Part shown: positions 2,980 to 36,393 of the stretch, one piece after another
How the letters are laid out: every line of letters begins with the position of its first letter
Numbering within the stretch: position 1 is the stretch's first letter
Source of the DNA: a virus
Taxonomy: Duplodnaviria; Heunggongvirae; Uroviricota; Caudoviricetes
Reading direction: 5' to 3' (one strand)
Virus record (IMG/VR): IMGVR_UViG_2534682330_000007
DNA: 49,277 nucleotides
Made by a program: the position numbers and the translations under genes
The notes under the pieces: model-generated
The model's input: the letters and a program-made list of their open reading frames with translations, nothing else
Databases searched by the model: none
Told to the model about the DNA's origin: nothing

Positions 2980-3411
2980 TCAATATCTATTCCTGTAATA
3001 TCTTTTATCTTTTATCTTTTTCCTTGCAAAGCCTTTTGCTAGTGATTTTGAAACACTCATAAGTGTACTAATTCCCTCATCCTTAAAGTTTGTTTTTATA
3101 GCTTGCCAGACATCCTTTTGACGTAAGTCAGCAATAAAATCATGCCCTCTTGCTGTCAACCTCAGTGGTACTTCGATCCAACTATATCCAACCCCTTCCC
3201 CTAACGCTTTGGACAATATATGACCGAACCCAGGTTTTCCATCAACCCTGACTATTAATTCGTAGTCACATAATAATCGCATATGGAAAATAAAATCTTG
3301 GTCATATCTATTAAAGCCATTATCCTCTAGTTCACTAAGCATCGTGTCAGGGCCACGAGTTTTTTCGAATGCGATAAGTAGATCTTTTAGATATTGCTGG
3401 TCTAATTTCAT
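2980..3411 (-). CDS. Hypothetical protein, 143 aa (AT-rich accessory island)
   Basis: ORF track; AT-rich codon usage unlike flanking lambda genes; lysine-rich C-terminal tail; no confident family assignment. Confidence 0.6.
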   Translation of the reverse strand: MKLDQQYLKDLLIAFEKTRGPDTMLSELEDNGFNRYDQDFIFHMRLLCDYELIVRVDGKPGFGHILSKALGEGVGYSWIEVPLRLTARGHDFIADLRQKDVWQAIKTNFKDEGISTLMSVSKSLAKGFARKKIKDKRYYRNRY

Positions 3412-3778: not shown

Positions 3779-3973
3779 TCTGCTTTTCCTGCATCAGGAG
3801 AAAGACAATCATGGCGGCGCGGATACTTCCGGTATCTTTTTACGCGATATTCCCCTTCAATGGCACATACAAGAAGAGAGCCATCAACAGGAGTGATTGA
3901 GGAATCGACAACCAGCAACGCTTAATTATCTATAGTGTCGTATTTGCTTCATAAAATATGGCGAATAACACAA

Positions 3974-8939: not shown

Positions 8940-9389
8940 TTACTTAACCAATGATGCTGCATATTCGATAAGGTAAAGCTTTGGGGCCAGCCAAATTTTT
9001 AACCAAGTCATATTGGTTACTACACCAATAATAAAAATCCCCCACAGAGTCAAAACTCCAACCAATGGCATGATAAGAAGGTTAATATCTCCTTTGCTAT
9101 CCCAAACCATTGTCGGCCTGTATTTGGGATTTCCCCTCTCCCATGAGTATCCTTCATCACCGATTTTACCTGTCTCAACTCTTTGGCACTGCTTCTTCAT
9201 AAACCAGAAAACCAGTGGGATTGTTAGAATGGCTATTAATGTTTTAATCAGACTGTCAACCATATTCCATAGCAGCAACTGATGAACAACATCAGGAATC
9301 TGCGCTTGGCTGAATGAAACAGCCGCGTCTATTCCATTGCTGGCTTTTTGCAGTAGTTCTACGAGAATCTTGTTTGCTTGTTCTTCCAT
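8940..9389 (-). CDS. Hypothetical inner-membrane protein, 149 aa (insertion relative to lambda)
   Basis: Two long hydrophobic segments (LIKTLIAILTIPLVFWFM and INLLIMPLVGVLTLWGIFIIGVV); lies between ea10 and ral where lambda has only a short spacer. Confidence 0.6.
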   Translation of the reverse strand: MEEQANKILVELLQKASNGIDAAVSFSQAQIPDVVHQLLLWNMVDSLIKTLIAILTIPLVFWFMKKQCQRVETGKIGDEGYSWERGNPKYRPTMVWDSKGDINLLIMPLVGVLTLWGIFIIGVVTNMTWLKIWLAPKLYLIEYAASLVK

Positions 9390-9448: not shown

Positions 9449-9649
9449 TCAGGCAGCCTTGTTATTCTGTTTACCAAGTTCTCTGGCAATCATTGCCGTC
9501 GTTCGTATTGCCCATTTATCGACATATTTCCCATCCTCCATTACAGGAAACATTTCTTCAGGCTTAACCATGCATTCCGATTGCAGCTTGCATCCATTGC
9601 ATCGCTCGAATTGTCCACACCATTGATTCTTATCAATAGTCGCAGTCAT
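9449..9649 (-). CDS. ral: Ral (restriction alleviation)
   Basis: 66 aa MTATIDKNQWCGQFERCNGCKLQSECMVKPEEMFPVMEDGKYVDKWAIRTTAMIARELGKQNNKAA matches lambda Ral. Confidence 0.9.
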   Translation of the reverse strand: MTATIDKNQWCGQFERCNGCKLQSECMVKPEEMFPVMEDGKYVDKWAIRTTAMIARELGKQNNKAA

Positions 9650-9777
9650 ACGGATAGTCCTGGTATTGTTCCATCACATCCTGAGGATGCTCTTCGAACT
9701 CTTCAAATTCTTCTTCCATATCTCACCTCAAATAAGTGGTTTGCTGCCTAATTTCATTTTCTGGCGACCAACACAAG

Positions 9778-10050
9778 TCATCTTGCTGTCAGCTGTTTGG
9801 ATTTCCTGTAGCCTGCCGCGTAAATGGCTACATTTGGAAGACAAGTTGAGCCTTCATATTTTCTGGTCAACGTTGTCAGTGTTATTACTTCTGCTCTCAT
9901 TACTGGTTTGCGTTTGCATTGTAAGACCACTCGTGAAGGGGTTGGCCTGTGTAGCTTGTCAGAGCTGATCGCCTCCTGACTTTGCAGGTTTGCACGACGA
10001 GCTCTACGGCGAGAAGCTGCGGTGCCTTTAAATTCTGTTTTTCTGGACAT
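9778..10050 (-). CDS. N-like transcription antiterminator (non-lambda type), about 91 aa
   Basis: ATG at 10050 preceded by GGAGG; N-terminal arginine-rich motif KGTAASRRRARRANLQ like the RNA-binding motif of N proteins; first gene downstream of pL and nutL. Confidence 0.7.
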   Translation of the reverse strand: MSRKTEFKGTAASRRRARRANLQSQEAISSDKLHRPTPSRVVLQCKRKPVMRAEVITLTTLTRKYEGSTCLPNVAIYAAGYRKSKQLTAR

Positions 10051-10148
10051 AGATTCCTCCCGAATAAACTTTGGCGATGCAATCTCGAAGCTCCTCCTGA
10101 GACGGTTGCTTCGGCATTGCATCCCACAGCTTATGTGGTTGGGTGGTC

Positions 10149-10195
10149 TGGCTTTTCAGCCACGTAGTCGAGTGTTCGACGTTGTTTAAAGAGCC
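10149..10195 (-). promoter_or_regulatory. nutL candidate: boxA (GGCTCTTTA) then 24 nt then boxB hairpin (TGGCT-GAAA-AGCCA)
   Basis: Read on the minus strand between pL and N; same boxA-24 nt-boxB architecture as the nutR candidate at 12106-12151. Confidence 0.55.
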
Positions 10196-10240
10196 TGCCA
10201 GTCTGTTCCATTTGGCTTCCAGCGTCCTGCTGATGACTAA

Positions 10241-10269
10241 ATAGTACGATATGTACTTTACTTGGTCAA
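10241..10269 (-). promoter_or_regulatory. pL candidate (-35 TTGACC, 17-bp spacer, -10 TACTAT) overlapped by palindromic operator AGTACGATATGTACT (10243-10257)
   Basis: Sigma-70-like hexamers with ideal spacing on the minus strand about 180 nt upstream of N; perfect 15-bp palindrome in the spacer. Confidence 0.55.
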
Positions 10270-10454
10270 TACGATTTGTTCTATTGAGGAGTGGTTTTTT
10301 ACAACGCTTTGTATTTTATAGTGTTGTTTTTTAGCGTGGGTGTATTGCCTCGGCGATGTAGGGAGAGATCAGAATTGCGTTGTTTAGTGAGTTGTATCTA
10401 TTAATTTTGAAATAAATACAATTGGTTATGCGTTTTTTGGGGGGCGTTAGGCAA

Positions 10455-10485
10455 AGAAAACCCGGCGCTGAGGCCGGGTTATGTA
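10455..10485 (-). terminator. Intrinsic terminator candidate ending the cI operon (CCCGGC-loop-GCCGGG then U-run)
   Basis: Minus-strand hairpin followed by TTTTCTTTG, located just 3' of the small ORF and before the pL/oL region. Confidence 0.5.
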
Positions 10486-10489
10486 GGCA

Positions 10490-10591
10490 TTATGCGGCTT
10501 TTTTGGTGTGTGCTGACGAGCGAGCCAGAATCTCGTTGATGAGAGATCTCAGGGTCATTGCATCTTTGTGCAGAGTGGACATGGTTTTCAT
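10490..10591 (-). CDS. Small ORF, 33 aa, with Shine-Dalgarno; below ORF-track cutoff
   Basis: Hand translation: MKTMSTLHKDAMTLRSLINEILARSSAHTKKAA; GAGG 7 nt upstream of ATG; followed directly by a terminator. Confidence 0.35.
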   Translation of the reverse strand: MKTMSTLHKDAMTLRSLINEILARSSAHTKKAA

Positions 10592-10660
10592 TGCGTTTCC
10601 TCGGTTTATTTTATGGTACTAGCCTAGTTCAAATAGACTATATGAAATCTTGATTTACTA

Positions 10661-11041
10661 TTAAGGCCATTGGGTTGGTGGAAGATCGTGGGTTTTTATC
10701 TGCGTATTTGCTTCCACACATTTATCATAGTCTAATTTCTCTACAGCAAGCAATAGTGATTCAGCATACATCAATCCTTGTTTGATGTTCATAACATTTA
10801 TGCTTGCACTTGCGGCATCCATATCCTTTGCTGTCTCTACCATGTGCTCAAAGCTTTGAGCAATAGAGTCAACACCGTTTTTCATCCTTGTAAACACTAA
10901 TTTTAGCTCATCAAGGCTTGGATTCGTTAGATCATACATCCCATGCATTCCATGGGCTTCGAATAACTCTGACAACGATCTAAGGGCGAAGTTCACAGAA
11001 TCAATAACTTGGTCGTACTTTTTCTTATCAAGATCATTCAT
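10661..11041 (-). CDS. Hypothetical protein, 126 aa, in the rexAB slot downstream of cI
   Basis: ORF track; same strand as cI, 66 bp downstream of the cI stop; no resemblance to RexA/RexB noticed. Confidence 0.65.
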   Translation of the reverse strand: MNDLDKKKYDQVIDSVNFALRSLSELFEAHGMHGMYDLTNPSLDELKLVFTRMKNGVDSIAQSFEHMVETAKDMDAASASINVMNIKQGLMYAESLLLAVEKLDYDKCVEANTQIKTHDLPPTQWP

Positions 11042-11107
11042 TAAAAATATAACCTTTTAACTAATTGATATTGCTGCATTTATATCAATATATGCATTTC
11101 ACATATA

Positions 11108-11767
11108 TCACCCAAACGTCTCTTCAGGCCACTGGCTAGCGATAACTTTCCCCACAACGGAACAACTCTCATTGCATGGGATCATTGGGTACTGTGGGTT
11201 TAGTGGTTGTAGAAACACCTGACCGCTATCCCTGATCAGTTTCTTGAAGGTAAACTCATCACCACCAAGTCTGGCTATGCAGAAATCGCCGGGCTCAACA
11301 GCTTGCTCTGGGTCAACCAGAATTAACATCCCGTCAGGAAAACTAGGTTTGGAACCTGTTGGTGCGGTCATTGAGTTACCTTCAACCTCAAGCCAGAATG
11401 CAGAGTCACTGGCTTTTTTGGTTGTGCTTACCAATCTCTCCGCATCGCCTTTGGTAAAGGTTCTGAGTTCTGGAGAGAACATCCCAGCCTGAACATGAGA
11501 AAAAACAGGGTACTCATATTGTTTTTTAACTGGGGCCGATGAGTATTCGCCAACAGGTGAAAATGTCCCGTCGTGGTTGAATGATATGTTATCAATACCA
11601 AGGTATTTAAACACCACACCAATATCACTAAGAGATGGATGACGAGATCCGCGCAACCAGTGTCCAATTCCACCCTGCGTCATACCTAGCTCTTCGGCTA
11701 ACTTCTCTTGAGTTATGCCGAGCTCTTTCATTCTGGATCTAGCCAGTTCATACCATTTCATTTTCAT
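11108..11767 (-). CDS. cI: CI repressor, hybrid: heterologous HTH N-terminal domain plus lambda-type C-terminal dimerisation/autocleavage domain
   Basis: C-terminal 130 aa ([28 protein letters not shown] ... SQWPEETFG) matches lambda CI; N-terminal HTH ([25 protein letters not shown]) does not; start taken at ATG 11767 (ATG 11761 also possible). Confidence 0.9.
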
Positions 11768-11879
11768 GTCCTTATTATTACGCTCTGTACTGGAACCATC
11801 CATGCACAATGTGTATTTTTTGCTTGTGTTTAAGAAGTACATATTGTATTTTTTTATTTGTGGTTACTATGGAGGGCAT
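11768..11879. promoter_or_regulatory. oR region with divergent pRM and pR and operator-like sites of form TAC-N-GTA (e.g. ATTACGCTCTGTACT 11778-11792, AGTACATATTGTATT 11836-11850)
   Basis: 112-bp cI-cro intergenic region; operator-like sequences resemble the oL palindrome; cI start has almost no leader, consistent with a pRM-type transcript. Confidence 0.55.
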
Positions 11880-12095
11880 ATGAGCAACCTACGAAAATAT
11901 CGAGAGTCACTGAATATCTCTCAAACAACACTTGCTAAGGCAGTTGGATGCACACAGGGAGCTATCGGACATTGGGAATCTGGTCGTCGCTTCCCAGACC
12001 TTAAAACATGCCGTGCTCTTGTTGCGTGTCTAAACAAGTTAGGCGCAAAAGTAAGTCTTGATGATGTGTTTCCGCCGGAGCACAAAGCTGCGTAA
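11880..12095 (+). CDS. cro: Cro-like repressor (HTH, non-lambda immunity), 71 aa
   Basis: ATG at 11880 after GGAGGG; HTH motif ISQTTLAKAVGCTQGAIGHWESG; first rightward gene of the immunity region. Confidence 0.85.
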   Translation: MSNLRKYRESLNISQTTLAKAVGCTQGAIGHWESGRRFPDLKTCRALVACLNKLGAKVSLDDVFPPEHKAA

Positions 12096-12105
12096 TAAGC
12101 GGAGC

Positions 12106-12151
12106 CGCTCTTTGTAACAACGGACATTCGTCCTACGTCGCTGAAAAGCGA
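12106..12151 (+). promoter_or_regulatory. nutR candidate: boxA CGCTCTTT then 24 nt then boxB hairpin TCGCT-GAAA-AGCGA
   Basis: Located between cro and cII; boxA matches the lambdoid consensus; GAAA-loop hairpin. Confidence 0.55.
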
Positions 12152-12236
12152 GTCCCAAGATATCTGACCAACTAAGGCCATATGCGTTTCCACGCATACC
12201 TTTCAACTAACTATTCACTATTGGAAATCTTAAGAA

Positions 12237-12533
12237 ATGGAACGAACAAGTTACAGCAAACTATCACAGCGTGACGTTGATCGCGCAGAAACAGATTTAC
12301 TCATCAACCTATCAACTCTTACCCAGCGCGGTCTGGCAAAGATGATTGGCTGTCATGAATCGAAGATAAGCAGAACGGACTGGAGATTTATTGCTTCGGT
12401 CTTGTGTGCTTTCGGAATGGCATCAGACATCAGTCCGATTAGCAGGGCTTTTAAGTATGCGCTTGCTGAAATCACAAAGAAAAAATCCCCGGCCGCCACC
12501 GAGGATTTTAAGCAAATTGATATGCAATTCTGA
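12237..12533 (+). CDS. cII: CII-like transcriptional activator
   Basis: 98 aa; C-terminus ITKKKSPAATEDFKQIDMQF resembles lambda CII C-terminus; position between cro and O. Confidence 0.85.
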   Translation: MERTSYSKLSQRDVDRAETDLLINLSTLTQRGLAKMIGCHESKISRTDWRFIASVLCAFGMASDISPISRAFKYALAEITKKKSPAATEDFKQIDMQF

Positions 12534-12565
12534 GGGAATTACTGGATCTATCAACAGGAGTCATT

Positions 12566-13465
12566 ATGACAAATACAGCAAAAATACTCAACTTCGGCAG
12601 AGGTAACTTTGCCGGACAGGAGCGTAATGTGGCAGATCTCGATGATGGTTACGCCAGACTATCAAATATGCTGCTTGAGGCTTATTCGGGCGCAGATCTG
12701 ACCAAGCGACAGTTTAAAGTGCTGCTTGCCATTCTGCGTAAAACCTATGGGTGGAATAAACCAATGGACAGAATCACCGATTCTCAACTTAGCGAGATTA
12801 CAAAGTTACCTGTCAAACGGTGCAATGAAGCCAAGTTAGAACTCGTCAGAATGAATATTATCAAGCAGCAAGGCGGCATGTTTGGACCAAATAAAAACAT
12901 CTCAGAATGGTGTATCCCTCAAAACGAGGGAAAATCCCCTAAAACGAGGGATAAAACATCCCTCAAATTGGGGGATTGCTATCCCTCAAAACAGGGGGAC
13001 ACAAAAGACACTATTACAAAAGAAAAAAGAAAAGATTATTCGTCCGAGAATTCTGGCGAATCCTCTGACCAGCCAGAAAACGATCTTTCTGTGGTTAAAC
13101 CGGATGCTGCAATTCAGAGCGGCAGTAAGTGGGGAACAGCAGAAGACCTGACCGCCGCAGAGTGGATGTTTGACATGGTGAAGACCATCGCGCCATCAGC
13201 CAGAAAACCGAATTTTGCTGGGTGGGCTAACGATATCCGCCTGATGCGTGAACGTGACGGACGTAACCACCGCGATATGTGTGTGCTTTTCCGCTGGGCC
13301 TGCCAGGACAACTTCTGGTCCGGTAACGTGCTGAGTCCGGCCAAACTCCGCGACAAGTGGACCCAGCTCGAAATCAACCGTAACAAGCAACAGGCTGGCG
13401 TGACAGCCGGAAAACCAAAACTCGACCTGACAAACACTGACTGGATTTACGGGGTGGATCTATGA
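12566..13465 (+). CDS. O: Replication initiator O (lambda type)
   Basis: 299 aa MTNTAKILNFGRGNFAGQERNVADLDDGYARLSNMLLEAYSGADLTKRQFKVLLAILRKTYGW matches lambda O. Confidence 0.97.
   Translation: MTNTAKILNFGRGNFAGQERNVADLDDGYARLSNMLLEAYSGADLTKRQFKVLLAILRKTYGWNKPMDRITDSQLSEITKLPVKRCNEAKLELVRMNIIKQQGGMFGPNKNISEWCIPQNEGKSPKTRDKTSLKLGDCYPSKQGDTKDTITKEKRKDYSSENSGESSDQPENDLSVVKPDAAIQSGSKWGTAEDLTAAEWMFDMVKTIAPSARKPNFAGWANDIRLMRERDGRNHRDMCVLFRWACQDNFWSGNVLSPAKLRDKWTQLEINRNKQQAGVTAGKPKLDLTNTDWIYGVDL
12913..13045. other. Replication origin: four iterons (TCCCTCAAAACGAGGGA-like) plus AT-rich region inside O
   Basis: Four direct repeats at about 12915, 12935, 12957 and 12982 followed by an A/T-rich stretch, as in ori lambda. 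Confidence 0.9.
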
Positions 13466-33839: not shown

Positions 33840-36393
33840 ACCGGTAGGCGATCTGGTCGTTGATTTGAGTCTGGATGCGGCCAGATTTGACGAGCAGATG
33901 GCCAGAGTCAGGCGTCATTTTTCCGGTACGGAAAGTGATGCGAAAAGAACAGCGGCAGTCGTTGAACAGTCGCTGAGCCGACAGGCGCTGGCTGCACAGA
34001 AAGCGGGGATTTCCGTCGGGCAGTATAAAGCCGCCATGCGTATGCTGCCTGCACAGTTCACCGACGTGGCCACGCAGCTTGCAGGCGGGCAAAGTCCGTG
34101 GCTGATCCTGCTGCAACAGGGGGGGCAGGTGAAGGACTCCTTCGGCGGGATGATCCCCATGTTCAGGGGGCTTGCCGGTGCGATCACCCTGCCGATGGTG
34201 GGGGCCACCTCGCTGGCGGTGGCGACCGGTGCGCTGGCGTATGCCTGGTATCAGGGCAACTCAACCCTGTCCGATTTCAACAAAACGCTGGTCCTTTCCG
34301 GCAATCAGGCCGGGCTGACGGCAGATCGTATGCTGGTCCTGTCCAGAGCCGGGCAGGCGGCAGGGCTGACGTTTAACCAGACCAGCGAGTCACTCAGCGC
34401 ACTGGTTAAGGCGGGGGTAAGCGGTGAGGCTCAGATTGCGTCCATCAGCCAGAGTGTGGCGCGTTTCTCCTCTGCATCCGGCGTGGAGGTGGACAAGGTC
34501 GCTGAAGCCTTCGGGAAGCTGACCACTGACCCGACGTCGGGGCTGACGGCGATGGCACGCCAGTTCCATAACGTGACGGCGGAGCAGATTGCGTATGTTG
34601 CTCAGTTGCAGCGTTCCGGCGATGAAGCCGGGGCATTGCAGGCGGCGAACGAGGCCGCAACGAAAGGGTTTGATGACCAGACCCGCCGCCTGAAAGAGAA
34701 CATGGGCACGCTGGAGACCTGGGCAGACAGGACTGCGCGGGCATTCAAATCCATGTGGGATGCGGTGCTGGATATTGATCGTCCTGATACCGCGCAGGAG
34801 ATGCTGATTAAGGCAGAGGCTGCGTTTAAGAAAGCAGACGACATCTGGAATCTGCGCAAGGATGATTATTTTGTTAACGATGAAGCGCGGGCGCGTTACT
34901 GGGATGATCGTGAAAAGGCCCGTCTTGCGCTTGAAGCCGCCCGAAAGAAGGCTGAGCAGCAGACTCAACAGGACAAAAATGCGCAGCAGCAGAGCGATAC
35001 CGAAGCGTCACGGCTGAAATATACCGAAGAGGCGCAGAAGGTTTACGAACGGCTGCAGACACCGCTGGAGAAATATACCGCCCGTCAGGAAGAACTGAAC
35101 AAGGCACTGAAAGACGGGAAAATCCTGCAGGCAGATTACAACACGCTGATGGCGGCGGCGAAAAAGGATTATGAAGCGACGCTGAAAAAGCCGAAACAGT
35201 CCGGCGTGAAGGTGTCTGCGGGCGATCGTCAGGAAGACAGTGCTCATGCTGCCCTGCTGACGCTTCAGGCTGAACTCCGGACGCTGGAGAAGCATGCCGG
35301 AGCAAATGAGAAAATCAGCCAGCAGCGCCGGGATTTGTGGAAGGCGGAGAGTCAGTTCGCGGTACTGGAGGAGGCGGCGCAACGTCGCCAGCTGTCTGCA
35401 CAGGAGAAATCCCTGCTGGCGCATAAAGATGAGACGCTGGAGTACAAACGCCAGCTGGCTGCACTTGGCGACAAGGTTACGTATCAGGAGCGCCTGAACG
35501 CGCTGGCGCAGCAGGCGGATAAATTCGCACAGCAGCAACGGGCAAAACGGGCCGCCATTGATGCGAAAAGCCGGGGGCTGACTGACCGGCAGGCAGAACG
35601 GGAAGCCACGGAACAGCGCCTGAAGGAACAGTATGGCGATAATCCGCTGGCGCTGAATAACGTCATGTCAGAGCAGAAAAAGACCTGGGCGGCTGAAGAC
35701 CAGCTTCGCGGGAGCTGGATGGCAGGCCTGAAGTCCGGCTGGAGTGAGTGGGAAGAGAGCGCCACGGACAGTATGTCGCAGGTTAAAAGTGCAGCCACGC
35801 AGACCTTTGATGGTATTGCACAGAATATGGCGGCGATGCTGACCGGCAGTGAGCAGAACTGGCGCAGCTTTACCCGTTCCGTGCTGTCCATGATGACAGA
35901 AATTCTGCTTAAGCAGGCAATGGTGGGGATTGTCGGGAGTATCGGCAGCGCCATTGGCGGGGCTGTTGGTGGCGGCGCATCCGCGTCAGGCGGTACAGCC
36001 ATTCAGGCAGCTGCGGCGAAATTCCATTTTGCGACCGGGGGATTTACGGGAACCGGCGGCAAATATGAGCCAGCGGGGATTGTTCACCGTGGTGAATTTG
36101 TCTTCACGAAGGAGGCAACCAGCCGGATTGGCGTGGGGAATCTCTACCGGCTGATGCGCGGCTATGCCACCGGTGGTTATGTCGGTGGCACCGGAAGTCC
36201 GGCGCAAATGCGGCGTTCAGAGGGTATCAGGTTTGAGCAGAACAACAACATGGTGATTCAGAACGACGGTACGAATGGTCTGCCAGGTCCACAGATGATG
36301 AAAGCAGTGTATGACATGGCCCGCAAGGGTGCCCGTGATGAAATTCAGACACAGATGCGTGATGGTGGCCTGTTCTCCGGAGGTGGACGATGA
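33832..36393 (+). CDS. H: Tail tape measure protein H
   Basis: 853 aa, lambda gpH match. Confidence 0.97.
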   Translation: MAEPVGDLVVDLSLDAARFDEQMARVRRHFSGTESDAKRTAAVVEQSLSRQALAAQKAGISVGQYKAAMRMLPAQFTDVATQLAGGQSPWLILLQQGGQVKDSFGGMIPMFRGLAGAITLPMVGATSLAVATGALAYAWYQGNSTLSDFNKTLVLSGNQAGLTADRMLVLSRAGQAAGLTFNQTSESLSALVKAGVSGEAQIASISQSVARFSSASGVEVDKVAEAFGKLTTDPTSGLTAMARQFHNVTAEQIAYVAQLQRSGDEAGALQAANEAATKGFDDQTRRLKENMGTLETWADRTARAFKSMWDAVLDIDRPDTAQEMLIKAEAAFKKADDIWNLRKDDYFVNDEARARYWDDREKARLALEAARKKAEQQTQQDKNAQQQSDTEASRLKYTEEAQKVYERLQTPLEKYTARQEELNKALKDGKILQADYNTLMAAAKKDYEATLKKPKQSGVKVSAGDRQEDSAHAALLTLQAELRTLEKHAGANEKISQQRRDLWKAESQFAVLEEAAQRRQLSAQEKSLLAHKDETLEYKRQLAALGDKVTYQERLNALAQQADKFAQQQRAKRAAIDAKSRGLTDRQAEREATEQRLKEQYGDNPLALNNVMSEQKKTWAAEDQLRGSWMAGLKSGWSEWEESATDSMSQVKSAATQTFDGIAQNMAAMLTGSEQNWRSFTRSVLSMMTEILLKQAMVGIVGSIGSAIGGAVGGGASASGGTAIQAAAAKFHFATGGFTGTGGKYEPAGIVHRGEFVFTKEATSRIGVGNLYRLMRGYATGGYVGGTGSPAQMRRSEGIRFEQNNNMVIQNDGTNGLPGPQMMKAVYDMARKGARDEIQTQMRDGGLFSGGGR

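Follow-up and report, generated by a model that had tools for sequence, protein, structure and literature searches.

A conserved two-gene accessory cassette in the place of rexAB in a lambda-like Escherichia coli prophage, a candidate for phage exclusion

The virus record IMGVR_UViG_2534682330_000007, a stretch of 49,277 nucleotides (nt) called the window below, is a lambda-like Escherichia coli prophage which carries on its minus strand, directly downstream of the repressor gene cI, a module of two small genes coding for a 126-amino-acid (aa) protein (10661-11041) and a 33-aa mini-protein (10490-10591). We are very confident that this pair is a real and conserved two-gene accessory operon placed in the lysogen slot of the prophage. 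The kind of element is a known one, an accessory cassette in the hotspot between cI and N, and the two proteins show no relation to those of any system described so far; both products are called “hypothetical” wherever they are named, and a literature search by accession, PHROG and peptide fragments returned no mention of the module. The order on the minus strand is cI (11108-11767), the module, a terminator, oL/pL and N (9778-10122), while cro, cII, O and P lie on the plus strand. A first-pass annotation made from the letters alone had put a 126-aa and a 33-aa open reading frame (ORF), the latter with its own Shine-Dalgarno (SD) sequence, into the slot which lambda fills with rexAB, and had them ended by an intrinsic terminator just before pL/oL; this outline is fully supported by the comparisons below.

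Both borders of the module can be drawn from related phages. Phages 2G7b, 2851 and 2B8, which have the same cI, carry other genes after it, and their homology to the window breaks off right at the cI stop. On the far side, lambda (88%) and CL707, a wild phage of lambda immunity (97.5%), become homologous again 8 nt past the stop of the small ORF, at the end of rexB and t-imm. The module is thus a cassette of ~625 bp which stands precisely in the place of rexAB, from the cI stop to t-imm. Its genes and terminator together amount to ~560 bp. A spacer of 66 nt (11042-11107, minus strand) separates the cI stop from the 126-aa gene; it holds a weak ribosome-binding site and is cargo-specific because homology with the phages of the same cI stops at the cI stop codon. 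The conserved right flank (10400-10482, minus strand) corresponds to the very end of lambda rexB, to t-imm and to the beginning of the oL region, and is 88% identical to lambda 35745-35828 and 97.5% identical to “Timm” of CL707. Within it the terminator scan gave an intrinsic terminator of the lambda t-imm type (10449-10480, minus strand), closing the cI-module transcript, with a stem at 10459-10480 (AACCCGGC-CTCAGC-GCCGGGTT) and a T-rich tail TTCTTTGCCT reaching 10449; hairpin and tail match those of lambda t-imm without a difference, and the Pectobacterium copy of the module has almost the same sequence here. On its far side the slot is bounded by a pL-like promoter, TTGACC-17-TACTAT (10241-10269, minus strand), which overlaps an operator-like repeat. 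Repeats of this type, common to the cI/cro intergenic region, are found at ~10258, 10300-10317 and 10410-10425, and the terminator therefore sits just before oL/pL.

The pair recurs in 11 diverged lineages, from Escherichia, Klebsiella, Pectobacterium, Proteus, Xenorhabdus, an Aeromonas phage and metagenomes. At every inspected locus, with the large protein ranging from 100% to ~25% identity, a short ORF lies 25-85 nt downstream of the large gene; these loci were from E. coli, Pectobacterium, Klebsiella, Aeromonas phage AsXd-1 with contigs related to it, prophages of the Proteus type, an enterobacterial prophage at 85% identity, two Xenorhabdus species and two lineages from metagenomes. Nearly all copies have a terminator after the short ORF; in the two from Xenorhabdus none is evident within ~55 nt. 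Among four enterobacterial lineages the proportion of non-synonymous differences (pN) was 0.25-0.35 in the small ORF, against 0.53-0.88 for synonymous differences (pS), and the corresponding values for the large ORF were 0.09-0.17 and 0.78-0.96. Synonymous sites near saturation together with restrained non-synonymous change argue that both ORFs are real genes under purifying selection. Divergence in one protein goes with divergence in the other (r = 0.84, 45 lineage pairs), so the two travel together. They carry opposite charges, the large protein from -8 to -11 and the small one from +1.6 to +5.5. Hosts range from E. coli of humans and birds to the plant pathogen Pectobacterium, Xenorhabdus associated with insects and the fish pathogen Aeromonas. 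Among the sequenced isolates of the phage collection the module was present only in AsXd-1, and a scan of species-representative genomes, made with a narrow pattern, gave only Proteus terrae and two Xenorhabdus species, so this distribution is a lower bound.

The mini-protein (MKTMSTLHKDAMTLRSLINEILARSSAHTKKAA, with the peptide stretch MKTMSTLHKDAMTLR...) is basic, with an isoelectric point (pI) of 10.5 (pI 9.3-10.5 across lineages), and not hydrophobic, and the pattern of its hydrophobic residues fits a moderately amphipathic helix. Its SD sequence GAGGAA (10597-10602) lies in the intergenic region (10592-10660, minus strand) five nt upstream of the ATG. The mean pairing energy to the anti-SD sequence is -6.8 kcal/mol for the small gene versus -2.7 kcal/mol for the large gene, and the small-gene site is the stronger one in 9 of 10 lineages (Wilcoxon p = 0.004, the lineages being not fully independent). 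The C-terminus fits [KR][KRE][AV]A in all 11 lineages, as KKAA, RKAA, KRAA, KKVA or KEVA, and since this tail persists where codons have changed synonymously and with any of three stop codons behind it, the constraint is one on the protein.

The 126-aa protein (RefSeq WP_021539111.1) matches phrog_16322 (8e-89), a family of unknown function. It is acidic and soluble (pI 4.8, charge -8; family pI 4.5-4.8). AlphaFold2, with an alignment of 32 sequences, predicts an up-down four-helix bundle with helices at residues 3-37, 43-71, 74-101 and 105-117 at a predicted local distance difference test score (pLDDT) of 89.8 and a predicted template modelling score (pTM) of 0.82; a first model had been poor (pLDDT 68) and its Foldseek search uninformative. 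P41, N85, L96 and C108 are conserved throughout the family, and G31, G34, K87-Q88-G89, A93 and E94 are near-invariant. The first-pass annotation had proposed homology searches, structure prediction and a PADLOC check, and had seen no resemblance to RexA or RexB. The outcome is a confident fold without an informative family: the large protein had no informative matches in Pfam, NCBIfam, PADLOC, PDB or BFVD, a sequence-profile search of PDB gave nothing below E 0.02, and neither protein matched anything in Pfam, NCBIfam or PADLOC, Rex families included (Pfam at E up to 1); in PADLOC-DB v2.0, with libraries no newer than 2023, the large protein, the small protein and the small protein of AsXd-1 gave zero matches at E up to 1. 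The family of the large protein amounts to 23-36 clusters at 90% identity among 5.8 billion proteins, and an exhaustive profile search recovered 18 representatives at 50% identity among 1.84 billion proteins, all from the family itself. A resemblance to the pairs TomB-Hha and YmoB-YmoA, in which the gene of a four-helix protein of ~124 aa lies upstream of one for a small helical protein, was rejected as non-specific, and HEPN and Doc identities were rejected for conserved motifs missing from the alignment. Older GenBank annotations often call the gene as a 73-75-aa product starting at an internal Met on an intact locus; “truncated” homologs of 67-75 aa, considered as a sign of toxicity, were dropped when they proved to be such gene calls plus one in-frame deletion. 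The latter, a loss of 21 nt (7 codons) in the large gene of one E. coli allele (L063:2501-2704, corresponding to window ~10824-10844), begins beside a perfect 18-bp palindrome TGCTCAAAGCTTTGAGCA (window 10845-10862).

No terminator was found between cI and the module by the terminator scan, so that co-transcription from pRM/pRE is the default expectation, and none scored between the two module genes in the window. By analogy with the cI-rexA-rexB operon of lambda, the module is probably transcribed with cI from pRM/pRE in the lysogen. A promoter scan found no promoter-like site in the 66-nt spacer, and the copies in Klebsiella, AsXd-1 and a further locus (L058) sit behind long AT-rich regions, where a promoter would be needed. 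Between the large and the small gene there is a weak promoter-like match, TTAATA-16-TATAGT (9/12; 10637-10664, minus strand), whose position recalls lambda pLit, the promoter which drives rexB alone. This region is not conserved in other lineages and the number of such sites is below chance expectation. The two genes have no conserved RNA structure between them (fold z-score -0.2). The GC content of the module is 36-39% versus 46-48% for cI. The module thereby has these features of a moron in the sense of Hendrix: it is an extra block set among conserved phage genes, which some relatives carry and others replace by different cargo, with its own terminator and deviant base composition.

The slot itself has a history of such cargo. 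In lambdoid prophages it is among the most strongly transcribed sites of the lysogen and has already given RexAB and BstA; our module is a third, unrelated occupant without functional annotation. Owen et al. described the region between cI and N as a hotspot of mosaic diversity which hosts the abortive-infection genes rexAB and bstA (PMC8585504). Behind a lambda-type or identical cI we found, besides rexAB in lambda, a BstA homolog in CL707 (L020, 2643-3548; PADLOC 1e-105), a 285-aa NYN-domain protein in 2B8 (L009, 3285-4142), a 283-aa protein without matches in 2G7b (L007, 3257-4108) and a 173-aa protein without matches in 2851 (L008, 3659-4180), while in one locus (L046, 3357-3698) a DUF3024 protein corresponding to the PADLOC candidate PDC-S43 lies between cI and the module. 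By their position, the 283-aa and 173-aa proteins may be counted as further defence candidates.

Placement of the module is not tied to one repressor. An identical 126-aa protein is found behind three repressor/Cro pairs: a 231-aa cI with an HTH_3 Cro, a 237-aa cI with a lambda-type Cro (Pfam Cro) and a 234-aa cI with a 77-aa Cro. Relatives at 85% and at 36-37% identity are also located between cI and N. The copy behind the unrelated 234-aa cI is preceded by a ~35-nt remnant of the “...WPEETFG*” 3' end of cI, which shows that the module was transferred by recombination. One E. coli genome (GCA_050196535.1; L010, L011) carries two identical modules in two lambdoid prophages which differ in immunity and replication genes. 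The last ~20 nt of cI (GGCCTGA[A/C]GA[G/C]ACGTT..., coding for WPEETF/WPDDTF; window 11110-11132) recur at junctions between cargo genes in the slot (L014:2890-2935; L037:3759-3774 and 3846-3861; L046:3177-3192 and 3329-3344), and, judged by this recurrence, they look like a short “boundary” for the swapping of cargo by recombination. Farther from lambda, a P22-like Pectobacterium prophage has the module downstream of mnt, in the same orientation and at the position of P22 orf59a/sieA, and this copy behind mnt retains the lambda-type t-imm hairpin. Klebsiella copies (L003-L005, L060-L062) form the first gene of a small non-phage islet in the chromosome, downstream of a yejM-like gene and next to a tRNA gene (L004:1960-2050), read from its sequence as tRNA-Pro; the islet also holds umuDC, a 140-aa gene of unknown product and a resolvase/invertase gene, and the module is convergent with umuDC. 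AsXd-1 has the module between a DinI-family gene and tail genes.

Position in this slot makes the module a candidate for defence or exclusion activity, as the first reading of the DNA had also supposed, and an anti-phage role seems to us a little short of an even chance. Homology gives no function, so the mechanism which we propose rests on anatomy. Our tentative reading, which we favour and yet think will rather fail than hold in its full form, is that the module is an exclusion or abortive-infection pair expressed in the lysogen, with the bundle protein neutralised by a mini-protein that is made in excess and readily degraded by proteases. A mobile two-gene moron with its terminator has taken the place of rexAB and should be transcribed with cI in the lysogen, where the bundle protein and the mini-protein may form a complex. 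With its stronger ribosome-binding site and its tail similar to ClpXP signals, the mini-protein could be an over-produced and short-lived neutraliser. An infecting phage which shuts off host expression, or otherwise perturbs the pair, would then free the bundle protein to block growth of the cell or of the phage, and the outcome would be abortive-infection exclusion working like the toxin-antitoxin defence of the RnlAB type. The labile-peptide mechanism taken for itself we consider doubtful. Rather unlikely, too, is its most far-reaching version, a new family of minimal prophage-borne abortive-infection systems with a 33-residue “antitoxin”, a K-K-A-A ClpXP degron acting as timer and a non-enzymatic four-helix-bundle effector released at phage shut-off; if this were true, the 33-residue protein would be the smallest known proteinaceous “antitoxin”. 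Should the module be a defence or toxin-antitoxin-like system, it would represent a new protein family and an unusually small model of a labile peptide controlling an effector, and should it be something else, it would still include a conserved small protein whose invariant C-terminal tail needs explaining.

Several observations weigh against this favoured reading. No catalytic motif is recognisable in the four-helix bundle, and neither homology nor a specific fold match to a toxin, nuclease, channel or defence family was found. We found no copy with a pseudogenised large gene and a small gene still intact next to it, as toxicity often leaves behind. The module is rare, being present in 32 of 5426 complete E. 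coli genomes, and it is absent from 72,556 plasmids. ClpXP of E. coli recognises a C-terminal Ala-Ala (ssrA, ...LAA) and the MuA tail RRKKAI (PMC5143411; PMC8138137), and by its resemblance to these signals the tail of the mini-protein is no more than a putative degron. Location in a defence hotspot is likewise circumstantial.

Comparison with known systems places the module near several of them and inside none. It shares with lambda rexA-rexB the slot between the cI stop and t-imm, the terminator, the two-gene layout and the presumed co-transcription from pRM/pRE. There is, however, no sequence similarity, and RexA and RexB have 279 aa and 144 aa, while both module proteins are small and soluble. 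RexB is reported to be an ion channel (PMC8585504), and neither module protein has a hydrophobic segment, the maximal Kyte-Doolittle window being 0.81 for the large and 0.51 for the small protein, well under the transmembrane threshold, so a membrane-level exclusion mechanism is unlikely. The same difference separates the module from P22 orf59a/sieA of the immI region, with which the Pectobacterium copy shares its position and orientation downstream of mnt and no sequence similarity. BstA of prophage BTP1 and of CL707 follows cI directly in this hotspot, as the module does, and is expressed in the lysogen (PMC8585504), as the module presumably is, but it is a single protein of ~300 aa, and the PADLOC model of BstA matches neither module protein. 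Two adjacent, co-oriented and co-inherited genes in what is probably one transcription unit are also the layout of type II toxin-antitoxin modules; neither partner showed homology to any toxin or antitoxin superfamily known so far. RnlA-RnlB and LsoA-LsoB are type II abortive-infection pairs with a labile antitoxin, and the proposed likeness to them would lie in adjacent genes, one partner in excess and probably short-lived, and a response when synthesis stops. The module differs from them in having no toxin or antitoxin homology, in the order of its genes, with the large gene first, and in a putative neutraliser of 33 residues without a DNA-binding domain.

Three other explanations are each of low probability in our judgement. 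According to one, the pair tunes the lysogeny-induction switch of its own prophage, or RecA-dependent cleavage in a broader sense, and does not act on other phages. Neighbours of the module are repeatedly linked to the SOS response: S24 self-cleaving repressors in E. coli and Proteus, umuDC in Klebsiella and the DinI-family gene of AsXd-1. DinI damps the co-protease activity of RecA. Directly upstream of this DinI-family gene, which precedes the module, we noticed a consensus LexA box TACTGTATATTCAAACAGTG (L002:3340-3385), and that neighbour is therefore probably SOS-regulated. A switch-biasing role of lambda RexA is documented (PMC11077077). However, the identical protein serves three unrelated immunity types, and a relative stands behind Mnt, which is not of the S24 type, and a repressor-specific partner is therefore unlikely. 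Moreover, no LexA box (CTGT-N8-ACAG) was seen by eye upstream of the module itself in the window, Klebsiella or AsXd-1, and convergence with umuDC means that the two are not co-transcribed.

About equally low we place a plain addiction module, a toxin-antitoxin-like pair that stabilises its prophage or islet without any anti-phage effect. Much of what suggests exclusion would suit it as well, namely the apparently over-translated small partner with a degron-like tail, the opposite charges and the co-inheritance, and the Klebsiella copies in a non-phage islet beside tRNA-Pro suit it in addition. Addiction modules are, however, commonest on plasmids, where this module was not found, and its recurrent placement in slots which carry exclusion genes would be left aside by such a function. 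The third explanation, no more and no less probable in our opinion, is a lysogenic-conversion factor for host fitness, a non-toxic pair acting on stress response, transcription or, through the acidic bundle, by DNA mimicry. Many morons have roles in host fitness, and a soluble acidic helical bundle without an enzymatic motif, carried in hosts of very different lifestyles, is in accordance with this. The same breadth of lifestyles nevertheless speaks against a role in virulence tied to one niche, the genomic position points rather to defence, and the strictly conserved tail of the mini-protein would be left unexplained.

The weakest alternative, that only the 126-aa gene is functional, with the 33-aa ORF a chance frame and an inverted repeat in the spacer an independent operator or promoter, has in its favour that RefSeq annotation by PGAP contains the large gene and misses the small one (e.g. 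NZ_CP019250, NZ_CP013025, NZ_CP134370) and that the repeat is perfect in the window, and it is largely refuted and scarcely credible, given a small ORF that recurs in each of the 11 lineages and shows pN below pS, a strong SD sequence, a tail kept at the amino-acid level and other reading frames full of stops, and given the poor standing of the repeat. This 8-bp inverted repeat, ATTGATAT-N10-ATATCAAT (11064-11071 and 11082-11089), is present where the first-pass annotation had seen it, but the suggested role as internal promoter or operator is not supported. Seven inverted repeats of at least 8 nt occur in the surrounding 1.8 kb, about one per 260 nt; 19 of 27 E. coli copies have ATATCAAA as the right arm, which makes the repeat imperfect there; the sequences preceding the module in Pectobacterium, Klebsiella and AsXd-1 lack it; and no promoter-like site accompanies it. 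The repeat is at chance level, is not conserved and carries no weight.

The remaining neighbourhood of the module is that of a lambdoid phage. The first 25 kb of the window align over 60-69% of their length with phages PhiR11_1, Chlobot, mEp332 and ev099, at 96-99% identity. The repressor encoded by cI (11108-11767, minus strand) is of the LexA/S24 type, with HTH_3 and Peptidase_S24 domains (Pfam S24 1e-28, HTH_3 2e-10), and its protein is 100% identical to cI of phages Nil2, 2851, YYZ-2008, 2B8, 2G7b and PhiR11_1; its Proteus homolog has the N-terminus MKMKWYEL. The N gene on the same strand matches Pfam N_peptide (1.5e-32). No Rfam families were found in window 9500-12800. Past the terminator, at window ~10435-10452 (minus strand, ...cgccccccaaaaaacg...), near-identical E. 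coli copies differ in how long a C-run/A-run is and in its sequence, and this variation explains the 5-nt length differences among the matches of 97.9% identity. Finally, the pL operon holds at window 8940-9389 (minus strand), beside the Ral antirestriction gene (9449-9649), a 149-aa ORF without a Pfam match, which is another uncharacterised early-left accessory gene and whose hydrophobic stretches suggest a membrane protein.

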